Shown here: positions 1,969 through 15,642 of the stretch, piece by piece
How positions within the stretch are numbered: the stretch's first letter is position 1
How the letters are laid out: each line of letters begins with the position of its first letter
Source: Bacteroidia bacterium
GTDB taxonomy: Bacteria; Bacteroidota; Bacteroidia; UKL13-3
DNA length: 64,000 bases
Assembly (NCBI GenBank): GCA_021740845.1
Contig: JAIOYZ010000005.1
Coordinates: forward strand, 3,693 to 67,692
Direction: 5' to 3'
Notes under the pieces: model-generated
Told to the model about the DNA's origin: nothing
What the model saw: only the letters and a program-made list of their open reading frames with translations
Database searches by the model: none
Program-made: the position numbers and the translations under genes

Positions 1969-2268
1969 ATGTCAGCATTTAACGATTTAATTAACGGTAC
2001 TACCCCGGTTTTGGTAGATTTTACGGCCACTTGGTGTGGACCTTGCAAAATGATGTCGCCCATTTTAGATGAGGTGGCGGGCGAATTGGGTGAAAGTGTA
2101 AAGATTATAAAGGTGGATGTAGATAAAAATCCACAAGCAGCGCAGCATTACCAAGTACAAGGCGTGCCAACATTAATATTATTTAAAGAAGGCAAAACGG
2201 TATGGCGTCAATCTGGAGTTGTACCAAAAGGACAATTAATTTCAAGTATTCAACAATTTAATAAATAA
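1969..2268 (+). CDS. trxA: thioredoxin
   Basis: WCGPCK active-site motif. Length is 99 aa. Confidence 0.9.
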   Translation: MSAFNDLINGTTPVLVDFTATWCGPCKMMSPILDEVAGELGESVKIIKVDVDKNPQAAQHYQVQGVPTLILFKEGKTVWRQSGVVPKGQLISSIQQFNK

Positions 2269-2272
2269 AGTT

Positions 2273-2587
2273 ATGATGAGTTTTATAAAGAAACTATTTT
2301 CTAGTCCTGTTAACGAAGAAATGAAGGAACAACTTGCGGCAGGAGCTGCAATTATTGATGTGCGCAGCGAAAGTGAATTTGCAGGCGGACATGTTAAAGG
2401 CTCTAAGAATATCCCATTAAACAAGTTATCAGATAAATTGGCCGGAATAAAAAAATTGAATAAGCCAGTAGTTTGTGTTTGTGCAAGTGGGATGAGAAGT
2501 TCTCAAGCCACTAATTTCTTAAAGCAAAACGGAGTAACTGCATACAATGGTGGTTCATGGCATTCGGTAAATAGATTAATTGATTAA
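2273..2587 (+). CDS. single-domain rhodanese sulfurtransferase
   Basis: Rhodanese fold with catalytic Cys in CVCASGMRS. Starts 4 bp after the trxA stop. Confidence 0.8.
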   Translation: MMSFIKKLFSSPVNEEMKEQLAAGAAIIDVRSESEFAGGHVKGSKNIPLNKLSDKLAGIKKLNKPVVCVCASGMRSSQATNFLKQNGVTAYNGGSWHSVNRLID

Positions 2588-2589
2588 AA

Positions 2590-3003
2590 ATGGGAACAGT
2601 ACATCAAACCAAAACCCAGCATATGGGTAAAATGGAATTTGATAGTGTTATCAATAACCATCATATTACGATTGATACGGTAGAAGCTGGTGGTGGCGAG
2701 AATCATGGCCCAAACCCAAAGCCACTTATGCTTAGTGCACTTGCTGGTTGCACCGGAATGGATGTTGTTTCTTTGCTCAATAAAATGCGTGCAGAATACA
2801 GCGATTTTTCCATTGATGTAGATGCTGATTTAAGCGATGAGCATCCAAGAATGTATACCGAAATTCGCGTTAAATACTTTATCAAAATAAACGATAGAGA
2901 GAAAATGGAAAAGGCGGTACGACTTTCAAAGGACCAATATTGCGGCGTTAGTGCTATGTTGAAAAAAGTTTGTCCGGTAGAATTTGAGATAAATTATTTG
3001 TAG
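2590..3003 (+). CDS. OsmC/Ohr family peroxiredoxin-like protein
   Basis: OsmC-like pattern PKPLMLSALAGCTGMDVV. Starts 2 bp after the rhodanese stop, so it is co-operonic. Confidence 0.7.
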   Translation: MGTVHQTKTQHMGKMEFDSVINNHHITIDTVEAGGGENHGPNPKPLMLSALAGCTGMDVVSLLNKMRAEYSDFSIDVDADLSDEHPRMYTEIRVKYFIKINDREKMEKAVRLSKDQYCGVSAMLKKVCPVEFEINYL

Positions 3004-3082
3004 GCTGTTTTTGGGTTTTGGGCTTTGGGGAAGGACATGGTTGTTGGTAAATAGTACTTTTTTGCGGGGTAGTTTTTGGGCG

Positions 3083-3130
3083 GGTAGTTTGTTTATTTCG
3101 TTTTGAACCGAGACAATTTGAAAATAGAAC
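3083..3130. repeat. partial copy of mosaic intergenic repeat, module A (ggtagtttgtttatttcgttttgaaccgagaca...)
   Basis: Shares about 40 bp with the 5' end of the element at 5329-5456. Confidence 0.6.
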
Positions 3131-3575
3131 CTTTATGGAGAATATAAATTTTAGACATTTTGTAAAAATAAAAAAAACACGCACGAAACAACTACAAAAA
3201 GTACCTTCATGGTACTAAATTAGGTTCAAAGCCTTCGAAAAAAACGAACTCCTCATTGAACAGGGGATCTCCTAAGCTGTTTTCTTATATTAAATATATG
3301 TTGTTTATTTATGTTCAATCAGATTTTATTTTTTTGTTGATTACCATTTCTTTGTGATGAAAGTACCAATTACAATTTGCAAATTTCATATAGGCATAAA
3401 AGAAAACCCAATTAACGATTGTTTTTATGGTTTGTCTTATAGAGCATTACTTTAAAAATCCAAAAAAATAATTTGAATATAATTGATTATCAAATTCCTT
3501 TTGAAAAGTTAAACTCATTTCATACTTTTATTGGACCTCAGTGATAAAAAAGAAATATTTTCGGGTCCTATTAAA

Positions 3576-5213
3576 ATGAATTTTATGCAATTATTTATGA
3601 ATCGTATTATAATTTTACTTCTTACATTAATTATTTTTCATTTCACTTCATGTGAAAATAATAGCAATAAAAAACAAAATATAAATTATTCGAAAATTGA
3701 AATAAAAAGAATAGTTTACTTGTGCAAAACCTGGGGTGCATTAAAATACTTAACTAGTAATACTAAATACAATAATATTGATTGGAATACAGAATTATAC
3801 GAGCAACTTTCTGAAAATCCAAATTTTTACTCCAATAACCAAATATTAGAAAAGGTATTAGTAAATTTAATAAGTAAAGCTGATGACGGAGAAAATAAAG
3901 TTGAAGAAAGGGCATGCAATTTTAATCTATATTGGGTAAATGATACTTCAATAGTAAATAAAAGCACGACAACTAAATTGTTGAAAATAATTAAAACGAA
4001 CCATGGTGTTATTAACAACCCAAATTTAGTATATGTTAATGGAGTTATAGATTTTACTGAAGAAAATAAAAAATTTTTGGATGAAGAATTACCAGAAATT
4101 AATTCGAAAATGGTAAATATTTTCAGGTATTGGAATATTATCAATTATTTTTTCCCTTATAAGAATTTAATGGATAGAAATTGGGATGAGGCTTTAAATG
4201 AATATATACCCAAAATATTAAATTCATTTTCTATTTCAGAATATCAATACAATTATCTTGAATTTATTTCTTTGTTAAGGGATGGCCATGGTTTTTCATT
4301 GTGTGACTACACCAAAACTTGGTATGATGACTTTGTTCCTAGTTTCAGCTTAGTAAATGGAAAAATAATTATCGAAAATAACCAAATTCAAACTTTGATA
4401 AATGGTGACTCAGTAATAATGATAAATGGAAAAACCATTGATAGTATTCAATTTTACCTCACAAAAATTTTCCCATCCTCCAATATTTCTTACACAAAAA
4501 AGAAACTTGAAAAGTTGATTTTTGATTTTGACACTACAAAAATTCTTGAATTAGAGATTATTAGAAATGGCTCGCCGAAGTCAATAAAAATTTCAAAAAT
4601 TGAAACATTTTCTAACGAAAAAAATTCAGATTACCCGCCATTTAAATACTATGGAAATATACTTTACTTAAATTATGGAATACTTAATCCAGTATTATTA
4701 GATAGTTTATTAAAAAGCATTTCGAAAAATGAACCAGAAATAATTATAGATTTAAGGGTTTATCCCAAAGAATATATGTTTAATGAAATTTTTGCAAATT
4801 TAGTTGTCACTTCCAAACCCTTTGTTTTGTTGAATTTAATTAATCCAAATTGTCCAGGAAACTTTACAAATTCTGAGATTTATAAAACCGAATCTTTAGG
4901 TGCAAAATTAAAACTTAAAAAATGTATTTTATTGGTTGATGAAAACACAATGAGTCATGGGGAGTTTTCTGCAATGTGTTTTCAAACATTACCTAACACT
5001 TATACAATTGGTAAACAAACTGCTGGAGCAGATGGGGATATTGTTGGAGTAAATATTTCAGGTGGAATAAGTACCTCCTTTTCAGGAATAGAAATTCTAT
5101 ATCCCGATAATACACCGACTCAAAGAAAAGGAGTAAAAATAGATAAATACTTTGATGGAAATAGCGATTCAACTATGATTCATGCAGCCATTAATTTTAT
5201 TAAACATCATTAA
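3576..5213 (+). CDS. S41-family (C-terminal processing / tricorn-like) peptidase lipoprotein, very AT-rich
   Basis: Signal peptide with lipobox FTSC when the start is taken at MNFMQLF. PDZ-like segment NGDSVIMINGKTIDS. C-terminal S41-like catalytic region LVDENTMSHGEFSAM ... TIGKQTAGADGDIV. Confidence 0.5.
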   Translation: MNFMQLFMNRIIILLLTLIIFHFTSCENNSNKKQNINYSKIEIKRIVYLCKTWGALKYLTSNTKYNNIDWNTELYEQLSENPNFYSNNQILEKVLVNLISKADDGENKVEERACNFNLYWVNDTSIVNKSTTTKLLKIIKTNHGVINNPNLVYVNGVIDFTEENKKFLDEELPEINSKMVNIFRYWNIINYFFPYKNLMDRNWDEALNEYIPKILNSFSISEYQYNYLEFISLLRDGHGFSLCDYTKTWYDDFVPSFSLVNGKIIIENNQIQTLINGDSVIMINGKTIDSIQFYLTKIFPSSNISYTKKKLEKLIFDFDTTKILELEIIRNGSPKSIKISKIETFSNEKNSDYPPFKYYGNILYLNYGILNPVLLDSLLKSISKNEPEIIIDLRVYPKEYMFNEIFANLVVTSKPFVLLNLINPNCPGNFTNSEIYKTESLGAKLKLKKCILLVDENTMSHGEFSAMCFQTLPNTYTIGKQTAGADGDIVGVNISGGISTSFSGIEILYPDNTPTQRKGVKIDKYFDGNSDSTMIHAAINFIKHH

Positions 5214-5328
5214 TTCTGTTATAATCTAAATTAATTTGGCTTCTTATTTAGCAAAAAATCTATCAACAACTGAGTGAGTGGCTTATCTATGCCACAAAGC
5301 AAATTGAATCATAGTTAGTCCTTTATCT

Positions 5329-5456
5329 GGTAGTTTTTTTATTTCGGTTTGAACCGAGACAAGTTAGAGAGTAGAAGAAAAAAGCTGAGTGAGGTTTCTG
5401 AGTAGAAAAGGGCGGATCCTGAGTGAAATGTCATTTTTCGTTTACTCTGCTAAAAG
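5329..5456. repeat. mosaic intergenic REP/MITE-like element, full module A (~110 bp)
   Basis: Sequence atttcggtttgaaccgagacaagttagagagtagaag aaaaaagctgagtg...tttttcgtttactctg, highly similar to 8098-8200. Abuts the stop codon of a minus-strand gene. Confidence 0.75.
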
Positions 5457-5466
5457 TTAGCGAAGG

Positions 5467-6396
5467 TTATTCAATTTCAAAATGCTTCTTAATACGCAAC
5501 ATTCTTAACGTGTTCCATTTACTGGGTTTTCCTGCTTTCTCCATGATGACGTGTACTTGTCCTGAATGTGCTGCATGCAAATTCCATGATCCATCCTTAT
5601 TCTGTTTTTTATTCAAATGGGCCAATGCCTCAGTCATTCTATCGTCCCATTTAATTCCTGCGTATTGAAAATAATCCATAGCTCTAAGAATGTCATATTT
5701 CCATCTGCATGGATAGCTTAACTTTAAGAAGTTTTTATCAATTATTTCTCCTGTGTGGTCTGATAAAAATAATCTGTGCATTAAGATAAATTCTATAGCA
5801 GTTTTAATAGCAACAGAAATTTCTTTTTTTCTATAAAAGAATCCCGTTTTCTGAAATTCGGTGAATCCTTCGAGAACTGAAATAGTAGAATGCAATGAGC
5901 TATGTTTTGCTCCACTTCTTGTTGACCTGCAATTAAATCCTCCATCCGGCATAATCTCATTAAGAATACTGTCTATAATGGAATGTAACTTCTTTTCAGG
6001 TGTTTTGAAATAGGAAGCATAATTCAAAAACATTCCATTTACACAAACGTCACTATGCTGCGATGTGGATGGCCCCAATTGAATACCTCCATCATCTGCT
6101 AGGTTATTTTGTAAGACCAGTTCTATTGTCTCTTGTACCATCTCATTGTTTGCTGGAAGATTTAAATTGCGAAGGTCAAGTAAAGTGTAATGGGTGGAAA
6201 TCCATTTGGGTTGATAGAATCTATCGCCCCAATGTCCGTTTGAATTACGTTTTGATAAAATTTTGGTACCCCATCCTTCATTTGGTATTCGGTTTTGAAG
6301 TTTCTTTTTGTCAGAACCTAACAAATCACGCCAAACTTGGTATTGGATAGAGACATCTCCTTCCAATAACCAGTCTATGATTTGTTGATTGTTCAT
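5467..6396 (-). CDS. prenyltransferase / squalene-cyclase-repeat (alpha-alpha toroid) protein
   Basis: Four to five repeats resembling the QW / PFTB motif: NGHWGD, DDGGIQ, PDGGFN, KDGSWN. Confidence 0.45.
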   Translation of the reverse strand: MNNQQIIDWLLEGDVSIQYQVWRDLLGSDKKKLQNRIPNEGWGTKILSKRNSNGHWGDRFYQPKWISTHYTLLDLRNLNLPANNEMVQETIELVLQNNLADDGGIQLGPSTSQHSDVCVNGMFLNYASYFKTPEKKLHSIIDSILNEIMPDGGFNCRSTRSGAKHSSLHSTISVLEGFTEFQKTGFFYRKKEISVAIKTAIEFILMHRLFLSDHTGEIIDKNFLKLSYPCRWKYDILRAMDYFQYAGIKWDDRMTEALAHLNKKQNKDGSWNLHAAHSGQVHVIMEKAGKPSKWNTLRMLRIKKHFEIE

Positions 6397-6451
6397 TTTC
6401 TTTTTGAAATTTAATTTTGAATATACTACTCAAGAATAGATGTGGCATACA

Positions 6452-6748
6452 TTATTGTTTCCATCTTTCAAGATTTGGAATTGACCTTGTAGCCAACCAT
6501 GCAAAGAAAACGTTCATTCCGTCTTTCTTCATTTCTTGTATACAAAACTTTTGCATTTTTTTGGCGGTATCAATCTCTGGAGGGGTTAAAAAAGATCCAT
6601 TTTCATAACACATGGAACAGTACTTTTTACTAATCGTTCCGTCTTTCTCAGTTCCTCCACCTTTTTTATCTTTCTTTAATGGGAAACCACAGCTTTGGCA
6701 AAATTTATATACTTTCATTTTATTATTTATTTCATTGAAGGTTGTCAT
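6452..6748 (-). CDS. putative zinc-ribbon domain protein
   Basis: Two CxxC pairs, FCQSCGFPL ... YCSMCYENG. Length is 98 aa. Confidence 0.5.
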   Translation of the reverse strand: MTTFNEINNKMKVYKFCQSCGFPLKKDKKGGGTEKDGTISKKYCSMCYENGSFLTPPEIDTAKKMQKFCIQEMKKDGMNVFFAWLATRSIPNLERWKQ

Positions 6749-6769
6749 TCGTAATAATTACTGCAAACC

Positions 6770-6850
6770 TCAGTCATACTAAAAACTAAGTTTTGCAACT
6801 CGAAAATAAGATATTTTTTATGCGATTTGGCGATGGCTAGAAAAATAGTT
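6770..6850. repeat. ~80-bp direct repeat (copy A), shared 5' leader module
   Basis: About 92 percent identical to 7811-7891. Lies immediately upstream of the start of a minus-strand gene. Confidence 0.8.
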
Positions 6851-7090
6851 TAGTTAATTGTTATTAAAGAAAATTGGGCGGCTTAATCCTTCCAATCGCC
6901 AAAAGAAAATACGGTTTTCTTATTAAAGCTAAATTCTTAAAAGGCAAACCTTATAGGCCTAGGCTAAAGATTTTACCCACAAAATTAATCGGCCGAAAAG
7001 CCCCAACCCTGAACGTAGTTCCACTCAACACAGGGTTCAAAGTGTGTCCTCCGGCCGCTTCGAACCCTTATCTGTTAGCAGAAGTTTTTT

Positions 7091-7795
7091 TTAAGGAACT
7101 TCATATTCATAAACTACTTGCGTCAATTTATTATCTACAAATTCCATTTCGGCTTTGAATTCAAGTCCATCTATAATGAAAGGTCTTAATCCCCCAACTT
7201 TATTCGATTCTCCATTCTCAAGCATAACAAATTGCCACACCAATAATTTTTTGTTTTCTAATTGTTCAGCAGTATTTGGAACTCCAAATATTCCCTTAAC
7301 TTCATCAATTGACAAACCAAGCTTTATTCCTTTTTTAGTTTGAATTGTGTCAATTTCTATTGTCTTTTTGTGATTGTTAATTTGAATTCCTTCAAATTGA
7401 AGTAGACTTAATAAATTCGAATCAGTGATTTCCGTTTCAGTTAAAATTGCTGTTGTTATTGAATAGTCGGTGTATGGAACAAAATATAATTTACTCTTTC
7501 CATTCGAGCTAATAAACCACTTAGAACCATCTTCTTTAAATTGATTGAATTGAGAAGTATTTAGATTAAAGAAGTCAGGTTGTATTCCCTTAGTGTAGGT
7601 TGGTTTGGTTACTTGAATTTCTAATGATTCATCACTTTCAAAACTTTTCTCTTCAGCTTTTTCTTCTGTTTTTTCTAATACTTGGCTTTCAATTTGAATT
7701 ACAGAAACATTCTTATCCGATTCGTTTTCAGAAGAATTATTCTGCCTGCAAGAAATCAGGCTAATAGCTATTAATATGTATATAAGGTCTTTCAT
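7091..7795 (-). CDS. hypothetical lipoprotein
   Basis: Signal peptide plus lipobox LISC. Acidic, low-complexity N-terminal region. Confidence 0.5.
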   Translation of the reverse strand: MKDLIYILIAISLISCRQNNSSENESDKNVSVIQIESQVLEKTEEKAEEKSFESDESLEIQVTKPTYTKGIQPDFFNLNTSQFNQFKEDGSKWFISSNGKSKLYFVPYTDYSITTAILTETEITDSNLLSLLQFEGIQINNHKKTIEIDTIQTKKGIKLGLSIDEVKGIFGVPNTAEQLENKKLLVWQFVMLENGESNKVGGLRPFIIDGLEFKAEMEFVDNKLTQVVYEYEVP

Positions 7796-7810
7796 TTAAT
7801 TACCGCCAAC

Positions 7811-7891
7811 TTCAGTCTACCAAAAACTAAGTTTTTCAACTCGAAAATAAGATATTTTTTATGCGATATGGCGATGGCTTGAAAAATAGTT
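7811..7891. repeat. ~80-bp direct repeat (copy B), shared 5' leader module
   Basis: Matches 6770-6850. Lies immediately upstream of the start of lipoprotein gene 7091-7795. Confidence 0.8.
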
Positions 7892-8039
7892 GATATAAAA
7901 ATTTATAAAATTTAAGTGGCTTAAAATGAAGGAATAGAAAGTGTAGCAAAGCTAAAACACAGAAAGCTAATCCATTTATAATAAGCAATACAATTCTAAA
8001 TCTAAAAAAGGCAAGGATAAAAAACAATGTAGCTCTATT

Positions 8040-8200
8040 AAAGCAGCTTACTTTATACCCAAAAGGATGTGACCTTTTCAAAACTTGGTTTCAGTCAATT
8101 TCGTTTTGAACTGAGACAAGTTTGAGAGTAAAATAAAAAAGCTGAGTGTGGTTCCTGAGTGAAATCGAAGGGAACGGCCCTTTTTCGTTTACTCTGTTAA
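8040..8200. repeat. mosaic intergenic repeat, module B followed by module A
   Basis: Module B (aaagcagcttactttat.cccaaaaggatgtgaccttttcaaaacttggtttcagtcaa) recurs at 9285-9363. Module A matches 5329-5456 and contains a small hairpin aagggaacggccctt followed by a T-run. Confidence 0.75.
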
Positions 8201-8203
8201 ATT

Positions 8204-8629
8204 TTAACGGCTGGCAGATATAGTTTTCACAAAATTATCTGGTGTCATAACCGCCAAAGAACTATTTTTAAAATCTTTCAAATTTCGTGTGAGTATCAAT
8301 TCTATTTCCTTATTTGTTTCGGCAGAATAATTTTGCAATGCATCCTCAAAATCTTTAAATTTTGAATTTAAAGCATGTATTACAGTATATCGGTCTATAA
8401 CTAGAATTTCGGTTATTGAAACTAGCATTTTCAGATGGTCTATCACTTTTTCATGCTTCTCTGTTTGCCGTAATAAATAGTATACATTACCAATAATTAC
8501 CGGTGTAATATAGCCAGTGATTTTTTTGGATTCGCATAGAGAAAAAACTTTTGCGGCATTGTCCGAAAATGGTTTTCTATCAAAAAAGAAATCTAAAATT
8601 ACATCTGTATCAATCAGTATTTTTTGCAT
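8204..8629 (-). CDS. PIN-domain toxin (VapC-like)
   Basis: N-terminal ILIDTDVILDFF acidic PIN signature. Length is 141 aa. Lies directly downstream of a small antitoxin-like gene. Confidence 0.7.
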   Translation of the reverse strand: MQKILIDTDVILDFFFDRKPFSDNAAKVFSLCESKKITGYITPVIIGNVYYLLRQTEKHEKVIDHLKMLVSITEILVIDRYTVIHALNSKFKDFEDALQNYSAETNKEIELILTRNLKDFKNSSLAVMTPDNFVKTISASR

Positions 8630-8632
8630 TGC

Positions 8633-8881
8633 CTATAAGTATTTCTCTGACAATTTTTTTGTCAACTCTTTTTTATAGTCAAAATTCGTTGGTGCTGTGA
8701 ATGAACCTTTAAGCGACTTTACAATCGGCGTCAATTCTATTTCCTCTGAGTTCGATTCTTTAGTTATTGCACGAAGATAATTTTCTATCAAATTCGAAAG
8801 ACTTCTACCTTTTCCTTTGGCGTATTTTTTTGCGTTTTCAATAACGCTTTCATCTATTGTAAGTGTAAGCTTAGTATTCAT
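8633..8881 (-). CDS. type II antitoxin-like small protein
   Basis: Length is 82 aa. Separated by 3 bp from the PIN gene. Confidence 0.5.
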   Translation of the reverse strand: MNTKLTLTIDESVIENAKKYAKGKGRSLSNLIENYLRAITKESNSEEIELTPIVKSLKGSFTAPTNFDYKKELTKKLSEKYL

Positions 8882-8919
8882 AATTTCTTGTTCAGAACAA
8901 AATTACTAAAGAATATATT

Positions 8920-8949
8920 CACGTGCAAAAATAATTTTAAGTACACGTG
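8920..8949. promoter_or_regulatory. pair of CACGTG palindromes 18 bp apart, candidate TA operator
   Basis: Sequence cacgtg-N18-cacgtg, 40-70 bp upstream of the antitoxin start. Confidence 0.3.
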
Positions 8950-9284
8950 TTGACTGCTTGCCGCTAATCGGTTCACGCAAGAGAGTTTATGAACCCAGAA
9001 TTATTTCAATTCATAGGCGTTCATGATTATTAATTCACCCTTAGGTTCTCAATACCTGTTCCGCATTTTTGGGAGAACCGTGTTTGATCCCGCACCTGAG
9101 GGACACACTGCTCTTCTTGATTCATCACGAATGTATTTATTCATCATGGATTTACCAATAAGTGGTGAGGAAAAATTAATTGGGTTCCATTTAAATTTTG
9201 AAACTAGAAGATTGATTGAGGAAACAAAGGAAGCAATACAATTTAGGCACAAAAAAAGACAAGTATAAACAAAGAAGCCCTGTA

Positions 9285-9363
9285 AAGCAGCTTACTTTAT
9301 TCCCAAAAGGATGTGACCTTTTCAAAACTTGGTTTCAGTCAATTTCGTTTTGAACCGAGACAT
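9285..9363. repeat. mosaic intergenic repeat, module B plus truncated module A
   Basis: Near-identical to 8040-8118. Confidence 0.75.
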
Positions 9364-9511
9364 CTTTAAGAAACGCTCAATAAACTAGCAAAATAGCGTC
9401 ATGGCAAATTGCCTTTACTTCCAAAATTTTGGTTCAAACCAAACCTTAATATTGCTTGGTATTTCTAAAATTTTCTAAATACCATTTTTTGGTTCAAACC
9501 GAACCCAAGAC

Positions 9512-10093
9512 TTATTTATTGCTGCGCAACTTGGCTCTTACTTTACTTAGAAACTCAGGCGAAATACCCAAATAAGCCGCTATTAAATGTTGTGGAACAC
9601 GCTGAGGAATACTTGGATATTTACTTATAAACTCCAAATAACGCTCTTCTGCTGGCTTTGAAATATTGCCTATCAAACGGTTCATAAGCGACTCTAAACT
9701 CTTTTGAACCAATATGCGGAAATACCTTTCAAAAACGGGATATTTAGTTAGCAATTGTGCCTTAGAATTAAATCCTAGAAATAGGAATTCGCAATCTTCA
9801 ATGGCCTGAATAAATAGCTGAGATGGCTTTTGTTCGGTAAAACTTCCAATATCACTTACCCACCAATCTTCTTCTGGAAACGCCAAATCTACCTCAAATC
9901 CTTTCTCATTTAAATAATAAATACGGGCAATGCCTTTAACTAAATATGCTTCAAAAAGGCAAACTTCACCTGCTTGCAATAAGAACTCTTTTTTCTTAAT
10001 TTTCTTAGGAACTAAAACACTATGAAGAAAATCTATTTCCTCTTGGTTAAAGGCAATTCGCTTGGCAATATTTTTATCTAATTCCTGAAACAA
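9512..10093 (-). CDS. Crp/Fnr family transcriptional regulator
   Basis: cNMP-binding beta-roll followed by a C-terminal HTH, IAAYLGISPEFLSKVR. Confidence 0.8.
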   Translation of the reverse strand: MFQELDKNIAKRIAFNQEEIDFLHSVLVPKKIKKKEFLLQAGEVCLFEAYLVKGIARIYYLNEKGFEVDLAFPEEDWWVSDIGSFTEQKPSQLFIQAIEDCEFLFLGFNSKAQLLTKYPVFERYFRILVQKSLESLMNRLIGNISKPAEERYLEFISKYPSIPQRVPQHLIAAYLGISPEFLSKVRAKLRSNK

Positions 10094-10096
10094 ATT

Positions 10097-10813
10097 CTAT
10101 TTTTTGAGCTTCTTTTTTGGAGTACTTGTTTTTAATTGAATTACATCCACTAAAAATGCAAAGGCCATTGAGAAATAAATATATCCTTTTGGGATATGAA
10201 AATCCAAACCTTCTGCCATCAATGAAATTCCAATAACAATTAAAAAACATAAGGCCAATATTTTAAATGAAGGATGCTTTTGAATAAAGTTACTAATGGC
10301 GCCAGAAGCCATTAACATGATGCCTACCGAGATAATTACCGCAGCATACATAATATAAAGATTATCTACCATACCCACCGCAGTTACAATAGAATCAATA
10401 GAAAACACTACGTCTAAAACCAAAATTTGGATCAACAATTCTTTAAATGTATTGGCTTTTCCTTTGGCTAAATTTTCTTCCTCTTCGCCCTCGTGCTCGG
10501 TTTTTAAATAAATCTCTTTGGTACTTTTATACATCAAAAACAAACCACCCGAAATAAGTATTAAATCCTTGCCCGAAATATCAATATCTTGAACACTAAA
10601 AAGTGTATTCTCGAGTTTCATGATATAAGAAATAATGGTAAGCAAGAACAAACGAATAACCATTGCCAAACCAATACCCGTTTTCCTTAATTTGTCTCTT
10701 TGCTCGGCTGGGAGTTTTTGAGTAAGAATGGAAATAAAAATAATATTGTCAATCCCCAAAATCACCTCAAGTGAAATAAGGGTAAAAAGGGCAATTAATA
10801 AATCGCTAGTCAT
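10097..10813 (-). CDS. TerC family membrane protein
   Basis: GIDNIIF motif with multi-pass TM character. Confidence 0.75.
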   Translation of the reverse strand: MTSDLLIALFTLISLEVILGIDNIIFISILTQKLPAEQRDKLRKTGIGLAMVIRLFLLTIISYIMKLENTLFSVQDIDISGKDLILISGGLFLMYKSTKEIYLKTEHEGEEEENLAKGKANTFKELLIQILVLDVVFSIDSIVTAVGMVDNLYIMYAAVIISVGIMLMASGAISNFIQKHPSFKILALCFLIVIGISLMAEGLDFHIPKGYIYFSMAFAFLVDVIQLKTSTPKKKLKK

Positions 10814-10883
10814 GTTATTTAGTTTAAAACCTTAGGTTTTCAATGATACGAGAAAAAGGAATGGATTTCCAAATTCTTTGTTA

Positions 10884-12224
10884 TTATTTTAGAAAATCTC
10901 GGTACCAAAAGCCAGAGTCTTTAATAATTCTTTCTTGAGTTAAATAATCAATGTAAATCAAGCCAAAACGCTGCTCATAACCTTCTGCCCATTCAAAATT
11001 ATCGGTGAGCGACCAAACAAAATAACCTTTAATTTTATGGTTTTCTTCTAATGCTTTGTGCACATTATCAAGATGGGATTTTAGGTAGTGTACACGCTCC
11101 AAATCGTGCACCCTTCCGTTTATGGGTTCGTCGTAAAATGAAGCCCCATTTTCTGTTATTATTACAGATTTCACTCCTTCATAAGAAGAAAAATGCTTTA
11201 TCATTTCGTAAATGGAATTGGGATAAACTTCCCATTCCATGCGAGTATGATGTACTTTTCTTTTTTTTGCAGGAATTAATTTTGCGCGCAAATAAGGAGT
11301 AAAAAAGCTATTGCTCACCACCTCTCTTGTATAAACTTGTACGCCAATAAAATCAAAGTCTGCTTTAAGATTTTCTTTATCGCCAGGTAAGATGTATTTG
11401 TTCATCTTTTTAAGCGTTGGCAAATCGTTAATTGGGTATCCCAAGCCCAAACTTGGTTCAATAAAAAACCTATTTAAAAGGGCATCCATTCTTTTGGCAG
11501 CCCTTACATGACTAGGAGAATAATCTACCGGTGTTACCTGCGTACAACTAAATGTGGTGCCAACAATGGCGCTGGGTTGTAGTTTTTTAATAGTTCTAAA
11601 ACCTATAGCTTGGCAAAGCGCAGCGTGATGAGCAGCCTTTAAAAAATTACCAATTCCTTTTTTGCCGGGCGCGTGTAACCCTGCAAAATATCCTGCACCT
11701 GTAAAAACTAAGGGTTCATTTAAAACCATCCAATGTCTCACCTTTCCACCAAAAGCCTTGATGCAAACCTCAACATATTCTTCAAACCAAGTGAGAATTT
11801 CTCTGTTTGTCCAACCGCCTTTTTTCTCTAATAGCAAAGGTAAATCCCAATGGTAAAGCGTAATCCAAGGTTCAATTCCATTTGCCAAACAATGGTCGAT
11901 TACTTGGTGGTAAAAATCAATGCCATCTTGGTTTATCCTTCCAATTCCATCTGGCAAAATGCGCGGCCAAGATAAGGAGAATCGAAAATTTGGAATGCCC
12001 ATTTCTTTTATTAGGGCAATATCCTCTCTAAATTGGTGGTAAAAATTTGCAGCTACATAATGATTCTGTTTGCCTTTTATCTGGTTTTTATCTGCAAACT
12101 CATCCCATATAGATGGACCTTTACCATTAACATTATGTGCACCCTCTGTTTGCAAGGCAGAAGCAGAAACACCCCAAGCAAACTCTTCCCCAAAATCTTT
12201 TGCTTTTAATCGCTTATTTTCCAT
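10884..12224 (-). CDS. glycoside hydrolase family 1 beta-glucosidase
   Basis: GH1 catalytic signatures LNEP and ITENG. Length is 446 aa. Confidence 0.85.
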   Translation of the reverse strand: MENKRLKAKDFGEEFAWGVSASALQTEGAHNVNGKGPSIWDEFADKNQIKGKQNHYVAANFYHQFREDIALIKEMGIPNFRFSLSWPRILPDGIGRINQDGIDFYHQVIDHCLANGIEPWITLYHWDLPLLLEKKGGWTNREILTWFEEYVEVCIKAFGGKVRHWMVLNEPLVFTGAGYFAGLHAPGKKGIGNFLKAAHHAALCQAIGFRTIKKLQPSAIVGTTFSCTQVTPVDYSPSHVRAAKRMDALLNRFFIEPSLGLGYPINDLPTLKKMNKYILPGDKENLKADFDFIGVQVYTREVVSNSFFTPYLRAKLIPAKKRKVHHTRMEWEVYPNSIYEMIKHFSSYEGVKSVIITENGASFYDEPINGRVHDLERVHYLKSHLDNVHKALEENHKIKGYFVWSLTDNFEWAEGYEQRFGLIYIDYLTQERIIKDSGFWYRDFLK

Positions 12225-12244
12225 TTTTCGGTTTGAACCAAGCC

Positions 12245-13294
12245 TTATAAATTACCAAAGATTTTAGTCATTAATTTTGGGGATTTCTCCACCCTGTTGC
12301 TATTTTGATGTCCGTGATTACGAACAATTAGTTCAACTATTTCAGCAGCATTATCTGGATAATCAACTTTTATATCATCGCCCGTTTTGAACCAAAGTCC
12401 TAATTTTTCGCTATTCTTTTTATTCAATTTTTTGATAACAGTTACCTCCATGCTTTTTAACATGGCTGCATTGCATTGTTGCTCAAATTGAGTTTTCATG
12501 GGAATTACCAATAGCTTTTTACCCATGTACAAAGCCTCGCTGGTAGTACCAAAACCGGCATTGCAAATTACCCCTGCAGAATTGGCCATGCTTTTTAAAA
12601 ACGCATCTTTTTCTATTGGACTAATTTCAATATTATCTTTAACATACCTTTTCTTGCTATGCTTAGAAAAAACCTGAAAAGGAATCGATGGAAAACGACG
12701 TAGGTTTTTAATAATTTTCTCATCCGAGTAGGAAGGCAAATACACCGTATAATGCCCTAGGTTCAAAACGGAATGTTCTCTTACTTCTTTTCTAATTATG
12801 GGAGTAAATATGTGTTGATCCAAAGATTTAAAATGGAAACCATAAGCGTAGGTTACGGGAGCATAATGCAATAAAACCATTTTACCCAAAACATCATTTT
12901 TCTTGGGCATAGGCGCAAGTGGATGGAGTGTTGCCATTTGATTGCTTAAGCCAATGCAAACTCTATTTTGTTTTAAAGCTGCCCATGCAGAAACAGGCTC
13001 AAAATCGGATATGATTAAATCGTAATTTTGGATTGGTAAATTCTTTATTTCCTTGAGTAATTTCAAGGATTTCATTTTCCAATAAGTTTTCCAAACATCT
13101 ACTCCCCCATTTTTGCCAAACACAAAAGACAATCCGTTAAAGCGATATTTTACCTTTAAGGGAATTTCCAAATCAGCCTGAATTCCACTAACCAAAATAT
13201 CCACTTCTCCATACTTTTGAAAATGTGGAATTAGCTCAATTGCTCGTGTTATATGCCCATTTCCAGTTCCTTGAACAGCGTATAAAATTTTCAT
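12245..13294 (-). CDS. GT-B glycosyltransferase (MurG/MGT-like, TIGR00661-like)
   Basis: N-terminal GTGNGHITRA motif. Length is 349 aa. Confidence 0.55.
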   Translation of the reverse strand: MKILYAVQGTGNGHITRAIELIPHFQKYGEVDILVSGIQADLEIPLKVKYRFNGLSFVFGKNGGVDVWKTYWKMKSLKLLKEIKNLPIQNYDLIISDFEPVSAWAALKQNRVCIGLSNQMATLHPLAPMPKKNDVLGKMVLLHYAPVTYAYGFHFKSLDQHIFTPIIRKEVREHSVLNLGHYTVYLPSYSDEKIIKNLRRFPSIPFQVFSKHSKKRYVKDNIEISPIEKDAFLKSMANSAGVICNAGFGTTSEALYMGKKLLVIPMKTQFEQQCNAAMLKSMEVTVIKKLNKKNSEKLGLWFKTGDDIKVDYPDNAAEIVELIVRNHGHQNSNRVEKSPKLMTKIFGNL

Positions 13295-13299
13295 TAGTC

Positions 13300-14157
13300 T
13301 TATTTAATTTTAGCTGGAACTAAAAACTCGGATAGCATTTGGTCGAATATTTTGTCATTGCTCATTTCCACCAATTCATCCTCTTCTTCCAAAACCTCTT
13401 CCTCTTCAAAATCGCTTTCATCGTATCGATATAGTGACCATTTGCCATCATTGTATTCTAATGCGGTTAAATTTTCAATCCAATCTCCAGAGTTTAAATA
13501 CTCCACCGAACCCTTTTCTGTACTAATGGTTTTCATTTCTGGCTGGTGAATATGTCCACATAAAACGTAATCAAAACCGTTGGCAATGGCAATATCTGCA
13601 GTAATCTTCTCAAAATCGTTGATAAACTTTACGGCTTGCTTTACTCCATTTTTAATATTCTTTGAAAGCGAAATTTTTCCTTTTCCCATTTTCTCAGAAA
13701 TCCAATTAACAAAGGCATTGATTAATATTAGCAAATCGTATCCATGAGAACCCAAGCGGGTAAGCCATTTAGAATGCTTCATGGTAACATCAAATACATC
13801 ACCATGAAAAATCCAGGTTTTCTTGCCATCCAATTCGAGCACCAATTTATTTTCAATAGACAAGGTTCCCATTTTAAAACCAGCAAATTTTCTAAGTAGC
13901 TCGTCGTGGTTTCCGGTAATATAATACACCTTAACACCTTGGCTCACCCATTTAATGATTTTGTGAATTACGCGCATGTGAGATTTGGGCCAAAAACGTT
14001 TGCTAAATTGCCACATATCAATAATATCGCCATTAAGCACAATGGTTTTGGGTTTTATTGAACCTAGGTATTTGAGTAAAGATTTGCTCTGGCAACCATA
14101 GGTTCCGAGGTGAATATCAGAAATCACCAAAACATCTATTTTCCGCTTTTTAGACAT
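13300..14157 (-). CDS. UDP-2,3-diacylglucosamine diphosphatase-like metallophosphoesterase (LpxH family)
   Basis: DIHLG, GDIID and GNHD motifs. Confidence 0.7.
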   Translation of the reverse strand: MSKKRKIDVLVISDIHLGTYGCQSKSLLKYLGSIKPKTIVLNGDIIDMWQFSKRFWPKSHMRVIHKIIKWVSQGVKVYYITGNHDELLRKFAGFKMGTLSIENKLVLELDGKKTWIFHGDVFDVTMKHSKWLTRLGSHGYDLLILINAFVNWISEKMGKGKISLSKNIKNGVKQAVKFINDFEKITADIAIANGFDYVLCGHIHQPEMKTISTEKGSVEYLNSGDWIENLTALEYNDGKWSLYRYDESDFEEEEVLEEEDELVEMSNDKIFDQMLSEFLVPAKIK

Positions 14158-14468
14158 AATTTTTCCTAGTATTGAAATAAGTTTGAGTAAGAATTGCTAG
14201 TTGAAATTTTGAGGGCTCAAAAGGATTGGCAATTTTTGCCAGCAAGAATGTTTCGAAAAAGAAACGTTTACAGTTTACCTTCAAGGAATAAGTTTTATAC
14301 AAAACAAAGGTTTAAACACTACGCCAATGTTAGCAAAATATAAAATTAATATTAACAAAATCATGCAAAGGCGCATGAGAATTGAGAGCTTAGAAAAGGT
14401 TGAATAAAAAATTTCGGATTGAAAATCAGGAATTAAGTAGGCCAAAGCATTTTTTTTATAAAAAGATA

Positions 14469-14498
14469 TTGCTTAGAAAAGTATCCTGCATATATTTG
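14469..14498 (+). promoter_or_regulatory. Bacteroidota sigma-A type promoter (TTG N19 TAnnTTTG) for the tRNA-Gly/tRNA-Leu unit
   Basis: TTG at 14469 and TATATTTG at 14491-14498, about 50 bp upstream of tRNA-Gly. Confidence 0.45.
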
Positions 14499-14548
14499 CA
14501 CTCCCCAAACGGGAATATCCAAAGCGACGCAAGTCATGAGGGTAATAA

Positions 14549-14624
14549 GCGAGAGTAGCTCAGTTGGTAGAGCGCAACCTTGCCAAGGTTGAGGTCGCGG
14601 GTTCGAGCCTCGTCTCTTGCTCCA
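14549..14624 (+). tRNA. tRNA-Gly (GCC)
   Basis: Cloverleaf read by eye. Acceptor GCGAGAG/CTCTTGC, anticodon loop TTGCCAA, T-loop GGTTCGAGC, encoded CCA. Confidence 0.9.
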
Positions 14625-14683
14625 AATAAAAAAGTTATAGGAATCGCCTATAACTTTTTTATTTTAATGTTCTTAAGATAATC

Positions 14684-14771
14684 GCTCGGGTGGTGGAATT
14701 GGTAGACACGCAGGACTTAAAATCCTGTGTCCTTTAAAGACGTGCGGGTTCAAGTCCCGCCCCGAGTACCA
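14684..14771 (+). tRNA. tRNA-Leu (TAA)
   Basis: Anticodon loop CTTAAAA, long variable arm, T-arm GCGGGTTCAAGTCCCGC, encoded CCA. Confidence 0.9.
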
Positions 14772-14774
14772 AAG

Positions 14775-14806
14775 GCCTGCAAACATTGTTTGTGGGCTTT
14801 TTTTTT
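14775..14806 (+). terminator. rho-independent terminator after tRNA-Leu
   Basis: Hairpin gcctgcaaaca..tgtttgtgggc followed by T8. Confidence 0.7.
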
Positions 14807-15021
14807 GCGGCGAAAATTTTTGGTCTTTGGGTGTTGGTCTTTAGTCTTTGGTAGAATTGCTTAGGTGAATGTTTTGGATCAAACCTAAAAGTTGTGGGGA
14901 AGAAATAAAAAGTTGACTTTTGGAGGGAATAAAAAACTTTATGCACGAACTTTTAACCTTCTCCTTTAATAATATTACCAGAATCAATTGAAGAATATTT
15001 TGAAGTAAGCAAAGTCAATAA

Positions 15022-15410
15022 GGAAGGCTAGGTTATCCTATTTATCTAAAGGAGTTAAATAAGATCCCAAGCGAATACGCGTCAAATAAGCTGACATCAA
15101 AAGAATTTTTTGATGAGACAACCATTCAAGATTTTCCTATTCGTGGTTTTAATGTATTGCTACATGTTGCACGTAGACGTTGGATAAATGAAGATACAGG
15201 TCAAGTAGTTTATAGAGATTGGGATCTAGTTGCAAAGGGCACGCGAATCACGAAAGATTTTGCGGCTTTTTTAAAAGAATTCCGCCGATACACAGGCTTA
15301 TAGTCTTCAAACCATCGCATCGTTTTATGGAGTTGATGGAAAGAAATTGCAACTGCAATATCGCAATAAACTTAATCCAATTGATCTGATCAAACTGGAA
15401 TTTCTTTTAA
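15022..15410 (+). pseudogene. frameshifted or truncated ISL3-like transposase N-terminal remnant
   Basis: Open frame without a start codon: ...DFPIRGFNVLLHVARRRWINEDTGQVVYRDWDLVAKGTRITKDFAAFLKE. A TAG stop is followed by continuation in another frame, QTIASFYGVDGKK. This resembles the ISL3 N-terminal HTH region. Family assignment is tentative. Confidence 0.35.
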
Positions 15411-15436
15411 AACAAAAAAGCCGCTATATGCGGCTT
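15408..15436 (-). terminator. hairpin terminator downstream of tRNA-Lys
   Basis: Hairpin aagccgctatatgcggctt with a U-run on the minus strand. Confidence 0.6.
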
Positions 15437-15448
15437 CTTTGTTTTTTG

Positions 15449-15521
15449 TGATCCCGCTGGGATTCGAACCCAGGACCCCTACATTAAAAGTGTAATGCTC
15501 TACCAGCTGAGCTACGGAATC
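15449..15521 (-). tRNA. tRNA-Lys (TTT)
   Basis: Reverse complement gives GATTCCGTAGCTCAGCTGGTAGAGCA...CTTTTAA...GGTTCGAATCC...CGGGATCA. Confidence 0.85.
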
Positions 15522-15642
15522 ATCACTGTGTTACCAACTGTAACGGGGTGCAAAGATATGTTTCTTCACCTTTCTCCCAAACCTTTTTTCAATTATTTTT
15601 CATTCATTCTTTACTTGTCTGAAAACCAAGAGAAATAATTTT

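Follow-up and report, generated by a model that had tools for sequence, protein, structure and literature searches.

Integrons are the best-known gene-capture devices of bacteria. A complete integron requires the integrase IntI; a cluster of attC sites lacking an integron integrase is referred to as a CALIN. CALINs may arise through the insertion of cassettes at secondary sites (Cury et al., PMC4889954). In surveys of complete Bacteroidetes genomes, only isolated integrases and a single complete integron, in Salinibacter, were found (10.1101/2022.02.28.482270), and the Bacteroidales carry rAID-1 arrays, recombinase-associated arrays of orphan immunity genes defined by a XerD-like recombinase gene at their 5' end (bioRxiv 10.1101/471110). 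Here we describe a set of intergenic repeats in a 64,000-nt stretch of a Bacteroidia genome (GenBank assembly GCA_021740845.1, contig JAIOYZ010000005.1, positions 3,693 to 67,692; GTDB lineage UKL13-3), which we call the window, and compare the locus with these systems. An integron-type array of this kind has hardly been documented in Bacteroidota.

An initial annotation made from the sequence alone described two of the repeats, modules A and B, as a mosaic family resembling repetitive extragenic palindromes (REPs), their composites (bacterial interspersed mosaic elements, BIMEs) or miniature inverted-repeat transposable elements (MITEs). We favor a different reading, to which we give a probability slightly better than even (roughly 0.55): modules A and B, together with a third module, D7, are the reiterated non-coding spacers of a small, integrase-less, CALIN-like array of integron-type cassettes. 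The array resembles a CALIN in having no integrase nearby.

Repeat modules between osmC and crp

The window has a GC content of 33.7%, contains gld and type IX secretion system genes, which assign it to Bacteroidota, and is about 12% intergenic. Its positions 2176-15586 are 100% identical to contig JAIOYU010000075.1 of another metagenome-assembled genome, GCA_021740965.1. The repeats lie in a variable island of about 6.3 kb (3.1-9.4 kb) that fills the gap between an osmC-like and a crp-like gene in convergent (3'-3') orientation. For comparison, we used about 78 kb of the same genome (the 64-kb window and about 14 kb of additional sequence, contigs L217 and L220), a 12-kb contig of a sister species (L092, about 88% identical), the same locus in another strain (L001), two attC arrays (L221 and L222), and a relative with 76% identity (L094).

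All of the repeats listed in the initial annotation were found, with slight refinement of their coordinates. The two full copies of module A occupy 5341-5456 (previously 5329-5456) and 8098-8200; their first 63 nt align with 89% identity and their last 41 nt with 78%, and the center contains indels. As described, both end next to the stop codon of a minus-strand gene, at distances of 10 nt (5456; stop codon 5467-5469) and 3 nt (8200; stop codon 8204-8206), and A holds an imperfect hairpin beside these stop codons. The truncated copies of A consist of its 21- to 23-nt head alone, at 3095-3117 and 9342-9362; the head sequence is ATTTCGKTTTGAACYGAGACA, and three of the four heads have GTTTTGAAC, a variant of the 10-nt core described below. 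Module B is present at 8040-8097 and 9285-9341. Together with the head, its two copies are 94% identical (8039-8127 versus 9283-9371), and the similarity reaches further left, through the segment called D17, with 86.9% identity between 7983-8118 and 9231-9362.

The initial annotation had missed a further module of 92-135 nt, D7, whose copies at 6755-6886 and 7796-7909 are 87% identical and lie directly upstream of two unrelated minus-strand open reading frames (ORFs). Similarity of this extent (87-94% identity over 60-130 nt) is far from anything chance would produce, and the modular, mosaic character first attributed to them is borne out.

Two genes of the locus are cassettes in attC arrays elsewhere

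A member of the 90%-identity cluster of the island's lipoprotein lies on a 10.4-kb contig, L221, which is a textbook cassette array of co-directional small ORFs. At least nine of its cassettes begin with GTTnnnnnn, and shortly past their stop codons stands the perfect 9-mer complement of this start, with AAC at its end; its attC sites are 60-178 nt long, with L''/L' stems, single-base bulges, and an ...AAAC|GTT end. Window positions 7087-7810 are 97.9% identical to L221 5557-6280 over 724 nt. The two sequences become alike from the G of GTTGGCGGTAATTAAATG onward, and the identity tapers off in the box past the stop codon, which reads CTGCTAAC in the window and CCGCCAAC in L221.

A second gene of the locus shows the same relationship. 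The allele of the other strain, L001, contains a 306-aa membrane gene (geneX) that differs from the genes of the window and is also a cassette in the array L222 (...gaaaccG|TTAGCAGG...CCTGCTAAC, followed by a 133-nt attC site), and the identity between L001 and L222 runs exactly from GTT to AAC. Both pairs, lipoprotein/L221 and geneX/L222, are therefore bounded at GTT and at the AAC box, which are the boundaries of integron core sites. The attC bodies that accompany a shared ORF differ from array to array. In the window and L001, D7 upstream and A downstream take the places held by attC sites in L221 and L222, with D7 ending at G|TT and A beginning at the AAC box as YCGYTAAC-WT-TTAGCAGAGTARAC... 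The remaining content of the island is also like that of a cassette array: a toxin-antitoxin (TA) pair with a promoter of its own, uncharacterized small proteins, and one segment whose GC content is atypical.

As an observation on L221 itself, its main attC type is unusually long (178 nt), and an ORF-less cassette of 409 bp occurs there in five tandem and three further copies (643-2700, 3488-3900, 6326-6740, 8500-8920).

These junctions bear on a competing explanation, that the island is a hypervariable islet shuffled by RecA-dependent homologous exchange, with the spacers serving as portable terminator/promoter regions. In that case no site-specific recombinase would operate in this lineage, and the GTT/AAC-bounded ORFs would have come in a single time from donors with integrons. 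With lengths of 130-400 nt and identities of 80-94%, the spacers would suffice for such exchange; no recombinase was found in the 64 kb, the core-site complementarity of the window cassettes has decayed, A has a terminator-like hairpin, and D7 sits in the position of a 5' leader. Homologous exchange nevertheless fails to predict that identity to foreign arrays should start at the G of GTT, for two independent cassettes downstream of the same D7 end, or that three D7 copies (those of the window and of L001) should precede three unrelated ORFs with the identical junction ...GACTGAnG|TT. On balance, we consider it unlikely.

Organization of the island and its alleles

The features of the island, including its neighboring genes, are as follows.

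2590-3003, plus strand: osmC-like gene, the left neighbor of the island
3004-3094, plus strand: chromosomal left flank, with a (TTTTGGG)n tract (3004-3030) and, immediately ahead of the first head, two GGGTAGTTT arms (3066-3094)
3095-3117, plus strand: head copy 1, ATTTCGTTTTGAACCGAGACAAT, a resident REP-like palindrome at which the island starts
3118-5340, plus strand: low-GC segment with an S41-peptidase-like gene (3531/3597-5213, plus strand; Pfam S41 match)
5341-5466, minus strand: module A copy 1, with, on the gene strand, an R''-like box CGCTAAC (5462-5456), the A-tail hairpin AGAGTAGA...TTTACTCT, and the head (5363-5341)
5467-6748, minus strand: two-gene cassette encoding a 309-aa protein of unknown function and a Zn_ribbon_2 protein, starting at G|TTTGCAG (6768-6761)
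6755-6886, minus strand: D7 copy a, ending on the gene strand in ...GACTGAG and then G|TTTGCAG
7023-7080, plus strand: 58-nt site predicted as attC-like by a covariance model, ACTCAAC-AC-AGGGTTCAAAG...CTTCGAACCCT-TATCT-GTTAGCA
7087-7810, minus strand: lipoprotein cassette (ORF 7091-7795), with G|TTGGCGG (7810-7803) at one boundary and the box CTGCTAAC (7078-7071) at the other
7796-8039, minus strand: D7 copy b (with the D7 block itself at 7811 to about 7945), a middle segment, and D17a (7983-8024)
8040-8203, minus strand: module B (8040-8097) and module A copy 2 (head 8098-8120, hairpin tail 8121-8200)
8204-8971, minus strand: TA cassette, with a PIN_3 toxin (8204-8629) and a DUF6364 antitoxin (8633-8881)
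9231-9362, minus strand: second D17-B-head copy, adjoining the right flank and without the A-tail
9363-9511, no strand: right flank up to the crp-like stop codon, with two more GGTTCAAACC palindromes (9431, 9491)
9512-10093, minus strand: crp-like gene, the right neighbor of the island

The first 15 positions of D7 copy b as listed (7796-7810) are the 5' leader of the lipoprotein cassette, which is common to L221.

The locus is found in three alleles. The window allele comprises the S41 segment, the cassette of the 309-aa and Zn-ribbon proteins, the lipoprotein cassette, and the PIN/DUF6364 TA cassette. In L001, the left flank (98% identical) is followed by A, geneX, D7-D17-B-A, the same TA pair, and a truncated IS91-family transposase, so that geneX and the TA pair are set between the same A and D7-B-A spacers as the genes of the window. 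The TA cassette is 91.5% identical between the two strains up to window position 8971, and the spacer of about 400 nt past the TA pair (7796-8203) is 82.7% identical although the next ORF differs.

The sister-species contig L092 carries the empty allele, in which the osmC stop codon and the crp stop codon are separated by 306 bp that keep only the GGGTAGTTT arms and one palindrome, ATTTCGGCTTGAACCGAA. The left flank is retained (aligned by blastn to window position 3111), where homology to the window ends, to resume at 9471. Since the empty allele keeps the palindrome downstream of osmC and homology breaks right after it, the GTT of this palindrome is the obvious candidate for the insertion site.

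The S41 segment is absent from both L001 and L092. Its GC content is 23-28%, compared with 34-38% in the flanks, and it is closed by a second arm (5316-5340) that resembles the left-flank arm at 22 of 30 positions.

Several further features of the alleles were noted. The TA cassette has a Bacteroidetes-type promoter, TTG-N20-TAATTTTG (8928-8898, minus strand); within its promoter region (8898-8960, minus strand), the -7 box TAATTTTG is a perfect match with the TTG 20 nt upstream, and an inverted repeat CACGTG...CACGTG resembles an autoregulation operator. Between this promoter and the second D17-B-head copy lie about 260 nt of non-coding sequence (8972-9230) with no counterpart in L001 or elsewhere; an 81-aa ORF called at 9023-9268 in one assembly has no Pfam match. 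In L001, a 5'-truncated IS91-family transposase gene (positions 1-440; Y2_Tnp, E=2e-37) abuts the upstream boundary of the TA cassette, at the very point where similarity to the window stops (8971). The heptamer microsatellite directly after the osmC stop codon also varies, with about three units of TTTTGGG in the window (3004-3030), at least eight in L001 (2780-2840), and five of CTTTTGG in L092 (7757-7795).

Comparison of the modules with attC sites

We built an attC covariance model from ten sites of L221 and L222. Applied to these two arrays, the model finds 18 attC sites; it is biased toward the attC type of one host. Run on the island with filters off, it gave one significant match, at 7023-7080 on the plus strand (19 bits, E=0.0045), predicted to fold with single-base bulges as in the attC sites of L221.

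The layout of an attC site is R''-L''-variable loop-L'-R', about 57-141 nt long and with extrahelical bases. Module A, read on the gene strand, has a similar order of parts: an AAC box 0-10 nt past the stop codon, a 2-nt spacer, stems of 8 bp (AGAGTARA / TYTACTCT) and 5-6 bp (AAAAAG / CTTTTT) enclosing a center of variable length, a spacer of 7-8 nt, and then the GTT of the head, for a total of 95-135 nt from box to GTT. The closing stem is conserved across the four copies of the window and L001, with compensated changes at two positions (A-U, G-U, G-C). Head and B together are predicted to fold into a second compact hairpin on the gene strand, CTCAAAC-TT-GTCTCAGTTCAAAAC-GAAAT-TGACTGAAAC-CAA-GTTTTGA.

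Several results weigh against reading the island as a cassette array. The R boxes of A are not complementary to each other, and the complementarity between the start and the R'' box of the island's own cassettes is imperfect (6/8 for the lipoprotein cassette, 5/8 for the cassette of the Zn-ribbon and 309-aa proteins). The covariance model misses A, head plus B, and D7 (best scores 5-8 bits, E>1), and the one site that it does detect, 7023-7080, is antisense to the neighboring lipoprotein gene. With a CALIN taken as at least two model-recognized attC sites on one strand within 4 kb, the island holds one such site. The covariation in the closing stem of A counts for little because the four copies are two orthologous pairs. 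The spacers between verified core sites measure 310-400 nt and are thus far longer than the attC sites in L221 and L222 (60-178 nt). The S41 gene lies on the opposite strand, and its segment bears no core-site hallmark. No tyrosine recombinase (PF00589-type) or transposase was found among the approximately 50 ORFs of the 64-kb window, and the sequence inspected covers about 78 kb of the genome. A strict scan for RYYYAAC...GTTRRRY (at least 6/7 complementary) found no site in the intergenic modules, an expression that is too strict since genuine L221 cassettes also deviate from RRRY. Folding energies of the modules were no better than those of shuffled sequences; the same holds for genuine attC sites of L221, making this measure uninformative.

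Given that no recombinase was found in the window, that complementarity is imperfect, and that the S41 segment is odd in these respects, a cassette array at this locus fits a decayed CALIN, or one served in trans, and not a complete integron.

A replication terminus with a dif site, as used by Xer-exploiting integrative mobile elements (IMEX) or by plasmid-type dif modules (pdif), was considered and rejected. Such elements would have a 28-nt site composed of a XerC arm, a 6-nt spacer, and a XerD arm at their junctions, at the replication terminus; no dif-like 28-mer was found above background. GC skew changes sign near the island but tracks gene orientation across the whole window and does not mark a terminus.

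Distribution of the modules and of the core palindrome

The head contains a 10-nt core palindrome, GGTTTGAACC, with 21 exact copies in the 64-kb window against 0.23 expected. Allowing a YR center (GGTTYRAACC) gives 25 sites, 21 exact and four variant. About 14 of the 25 are intergenic, even though intergenic sequence makes up just 12% of the window, and most of these lie 2-70 nt past a stop codon. The sister contig L092 has 10 copies of the core in its 12 kb, at sites orthologous to those of the window. The core is almost absent from the relative L094 (76% identical) and from other Bacteroidota loci totaling about 1.2 Mb, which identifies it as a lineage-specific REP-like palindrome. It may act as a REP-like element, as a binding site for a protein, or as an uptake-type signal; a literature search with the motif string gave nothing relevant. 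Examples of the palindrome stand at 1469, 9431, 9491, 12230, 30875, 47451, 57049, and 58935, with an extended consensus of approximately TTTCGGTTTGAACCAAA; it often follows a stop codon by 2-35 nt or fills a short gap between co-directional genes.

The longer modules are distributed differently. No copy of the A-tail, B, D17, or D7 was found outside 3.1-9.4 kb in the approximately 78 kb of the same genome or in the 12 kb of L092. The 21-mer of the A head had no match in 185,579 reference genomes. Among 241 million metagenome records it had a single match, and this comes from the osmC-crp locus of a different strain. Patterns for the A head and module B had no match in the viral collection, a blastn search with 5300-9400 found nothing in the plasmid and phage collections, and a generic 16-mer gave single chance matches in the viral, plasmid, and phage collections. 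Neither the modules nor the GGTTTGAACC motif were found in the neighborhoods of close PIN-toxin homologs (L088-L091) or of TerC homologs in 80 other genomes (L007-L086).

The proposal of a REP/MITE-like family thus holds for the dispersed, over-represented 10-nt core and is not supported for the A-tail, B, and D7, which in the sequence inspected occur in the island alone. Inverted-repeat scans gave only the internal stem of A and arm matches at chance level, such as an inverted match of the left-flank arm at 3166-3195 (22 of 30 nt, background 20-21), and no convincing terminal inverted repeats or target-site duplications were found. With neither these features nor dispersed copies in the sequence inspected, a MITE was rejected.

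For a dispersed REP/BIME- or MITE-like family in the wider sense, in which A and B would be intergenic elements that move or multiply across the genome in many copies, a few of which happen to lie in the island, one can point to the head core, a dispersed palindrome mostly past stop codons; to a combination of a left-flank-arm-like sequence and a head, which recurs with GGATTGCAAATCC at another convergent intergenic region (L092 1290-1530) as a BIME-like mosaic; and to the inspected sequence amounting to about 2-3% of a typical genome. Against this stand the confinement of the A-tail, B, D17, and D7 to the island within the 78 kb and 12 kb inspected, the absence of the A-head 21-mer from the reference genomes and its single metagenome match at the same locus, the failure to find terminal inverted repeats or target-site duplications, and module ends that match integron core sites and not element termini. 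We regard such a family as improbable. The initial annotation had added that a lack of further copies elsewhere would mean a local duplication only; in the sequence inspected there are indeed none, yet the repeats look like the spacers of a cassette array and not like a plain local duplication.

The other repeat-rich convergent intergenic region (L092 1230-1750, and L220 180-640, just left of the window) contains tandem units of about 180 nt, in which a TTTTGGGG tract and the head palindrome are combined with several copies of the palindrome GGATTGCAAATCC, which occurs six times in L092 and four times in L220. The arrangement is BIME-like and has no relation to modules A and B. Elsewhere in the window, a GTAA/GTAT tetranucleotide tandem array of about 45 units lies between a DUF6132-like and a thioredoxin gene (1751-1950), and the interval 14810-15300, between tRNA-Leu and tRNA-Lys, contains the N-terminal remnant of an ISL3-type transposase (15064-15300, weak Zn_ribbon_ISL3 match) preceded by a GGTCTTT-repeat tract. 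In the same interval, 40 nt (14878-14917) are an inverted, 95% match to the spacer of the empty osmC-crp site in L092.

RNA-level signals in module A

The initial annotation described a small hairpin plus T-run within A. This feature is present on the plus strand at 8167-8183. Both copies of L001 have it as well, and the copy at 5341 has lost it through a deletion. Module A might then be mainly an RNA element, such as a 3'-UTR stabilizer, a bidirectional terminator, or a plus-strand gene for an antisense small RNA, copied together with neighboring genes. This would agree with the position of A, which begins 3-10 nt past stop codons, with the plus-strand GC hairpin and T-run in three of four copies, and with the closing stem, where G-U pairs preserve the pairing in the plus-strand reading alone. 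However, Rfam gives nothing for A: the whole window at gathering threshold yielded four tRNAs only, and 2900-9700 at E up to 5 yielded only sub-threshold chance matches. Scans for sigma-70 promoters and terminators were at chance level (four terminators found, 3.6 expected), one copy has lost the hairpin and T-run, and termination at the T-run is implausible because the closing stem of A spans it. B, D7, the truncated heads, and the variation in cassettes would all be left unexplained. We therefore hold it very improbable that A is mainly an RNA element, a role that is nonetheless compatible with A being a cassette-array spacer.

A possible mechanism of cassette exchange

If the island is a cassette array, a unit read on the minus strand would consist of D7 ending in ...GACTGAN-G|TT, a cassette-specific core (TTGGCGG, TTTGCAG, or TTAGCAGG), one or more ORFs, a ...YTAAC box complementary to the core, the hairpin of A, the head palindrome, and B. 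A, head plus B, and D7 would themselves be the recombination sites, standing in for attC, and an IntI-type tyrosine recombinase encoded elsewhere and acting in trans would exchange cassettes at G|TT. The first insertion would have taken place at the GTT within the resident REP-like palindrome, the head serving as a secondary site. The spacers would probably also provide terminator and 5'-leader functions.

A bolder version, which we put forward only tentatively and think unlikely, is a non-canonical integron-type system of uncultured Bacteroidia in which just the ORF segment between inverted GTT...AAC core sites is exchanged. Composite spacers of 100-400 nt belonging to the lineage itself would replace attC, and GGTTYRAACC would be the chromosomal landing site, any of whose approximately one thousand copies could seed a satellite array.

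Comparison with known systems

Among elements that bring promoters or terminators beside genes, the Correia elements of Neisseria, which are MITEs, are similar to the modules in being intergenic repeats of about 100-150 nt with hairpin potential that can carry regulatory signals; the island modules differ in having no terminal inverted repeats, target-site duplication, or dispersed copies. The head core resembles the REPs and BIMEs of enterobacteria and pseudomonads, as a short, over-represented, imperfect palindrome, mostly extragenic past stop codons and occurring in mosaics. The head unit, of about 16-20 nt, is shorter than a classical REP. Unlike in REP/BIME systems, the A-tail, B, and D7 are not dispersed, the mosaic is tied to variable gene content, and no REP-associated tyrosine transposase (RAYT) was seen.

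The rAID-1 arrays, from the same phylum, are likewise integron-like, with repetitive intergenic sequences and skewed GC content, but no recombinase was found flanking the island, and its genes are not recognizable immunity genes.

The closest match is with CALINs and with sedentary chromosomal integrons whose attC sites are homogeneous, such as the array of Vibrio cholerae repeats. The island differs from these in its composite spacers (A, head, B, D17, and D7) of 310-400 nt, which lack R''/R' complementarity and are missed by the attC model; in its size of only four to five units, with no intI found within 64 kb; in sharing ORFs and not attC bodies with other arrays; and in sitting at a REP-like palindrome and not at attI. 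It agrees with them in its mostly co-oriented, unrelated small genes separated by array-specific spacers that start from the stop codon, in its G|TT boundaries and the complementary ...AAC box past the ORF, in a TA cassette with its own promoter, in strain-variable content with an empty allele, and in two cassettes shared with L221 and L222.

The locus presents cassettes known from textbook attC arrays inside the chromosome of a Bacteroidia member, where they are set between spacers missed by an attC model, and both empty and alternatively filled alleles are available for comparison. Should the spacers be active recombination sites, a class of arrays would escape current integron finders, and the link to a REP-like palindrome would be a concrete example of satellite arrays being seeded at secondary sites. 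If they are inactive, the island would still be a clear example of a CALIN in decay and would caution against taking cassette spacers for REP or MITE families.

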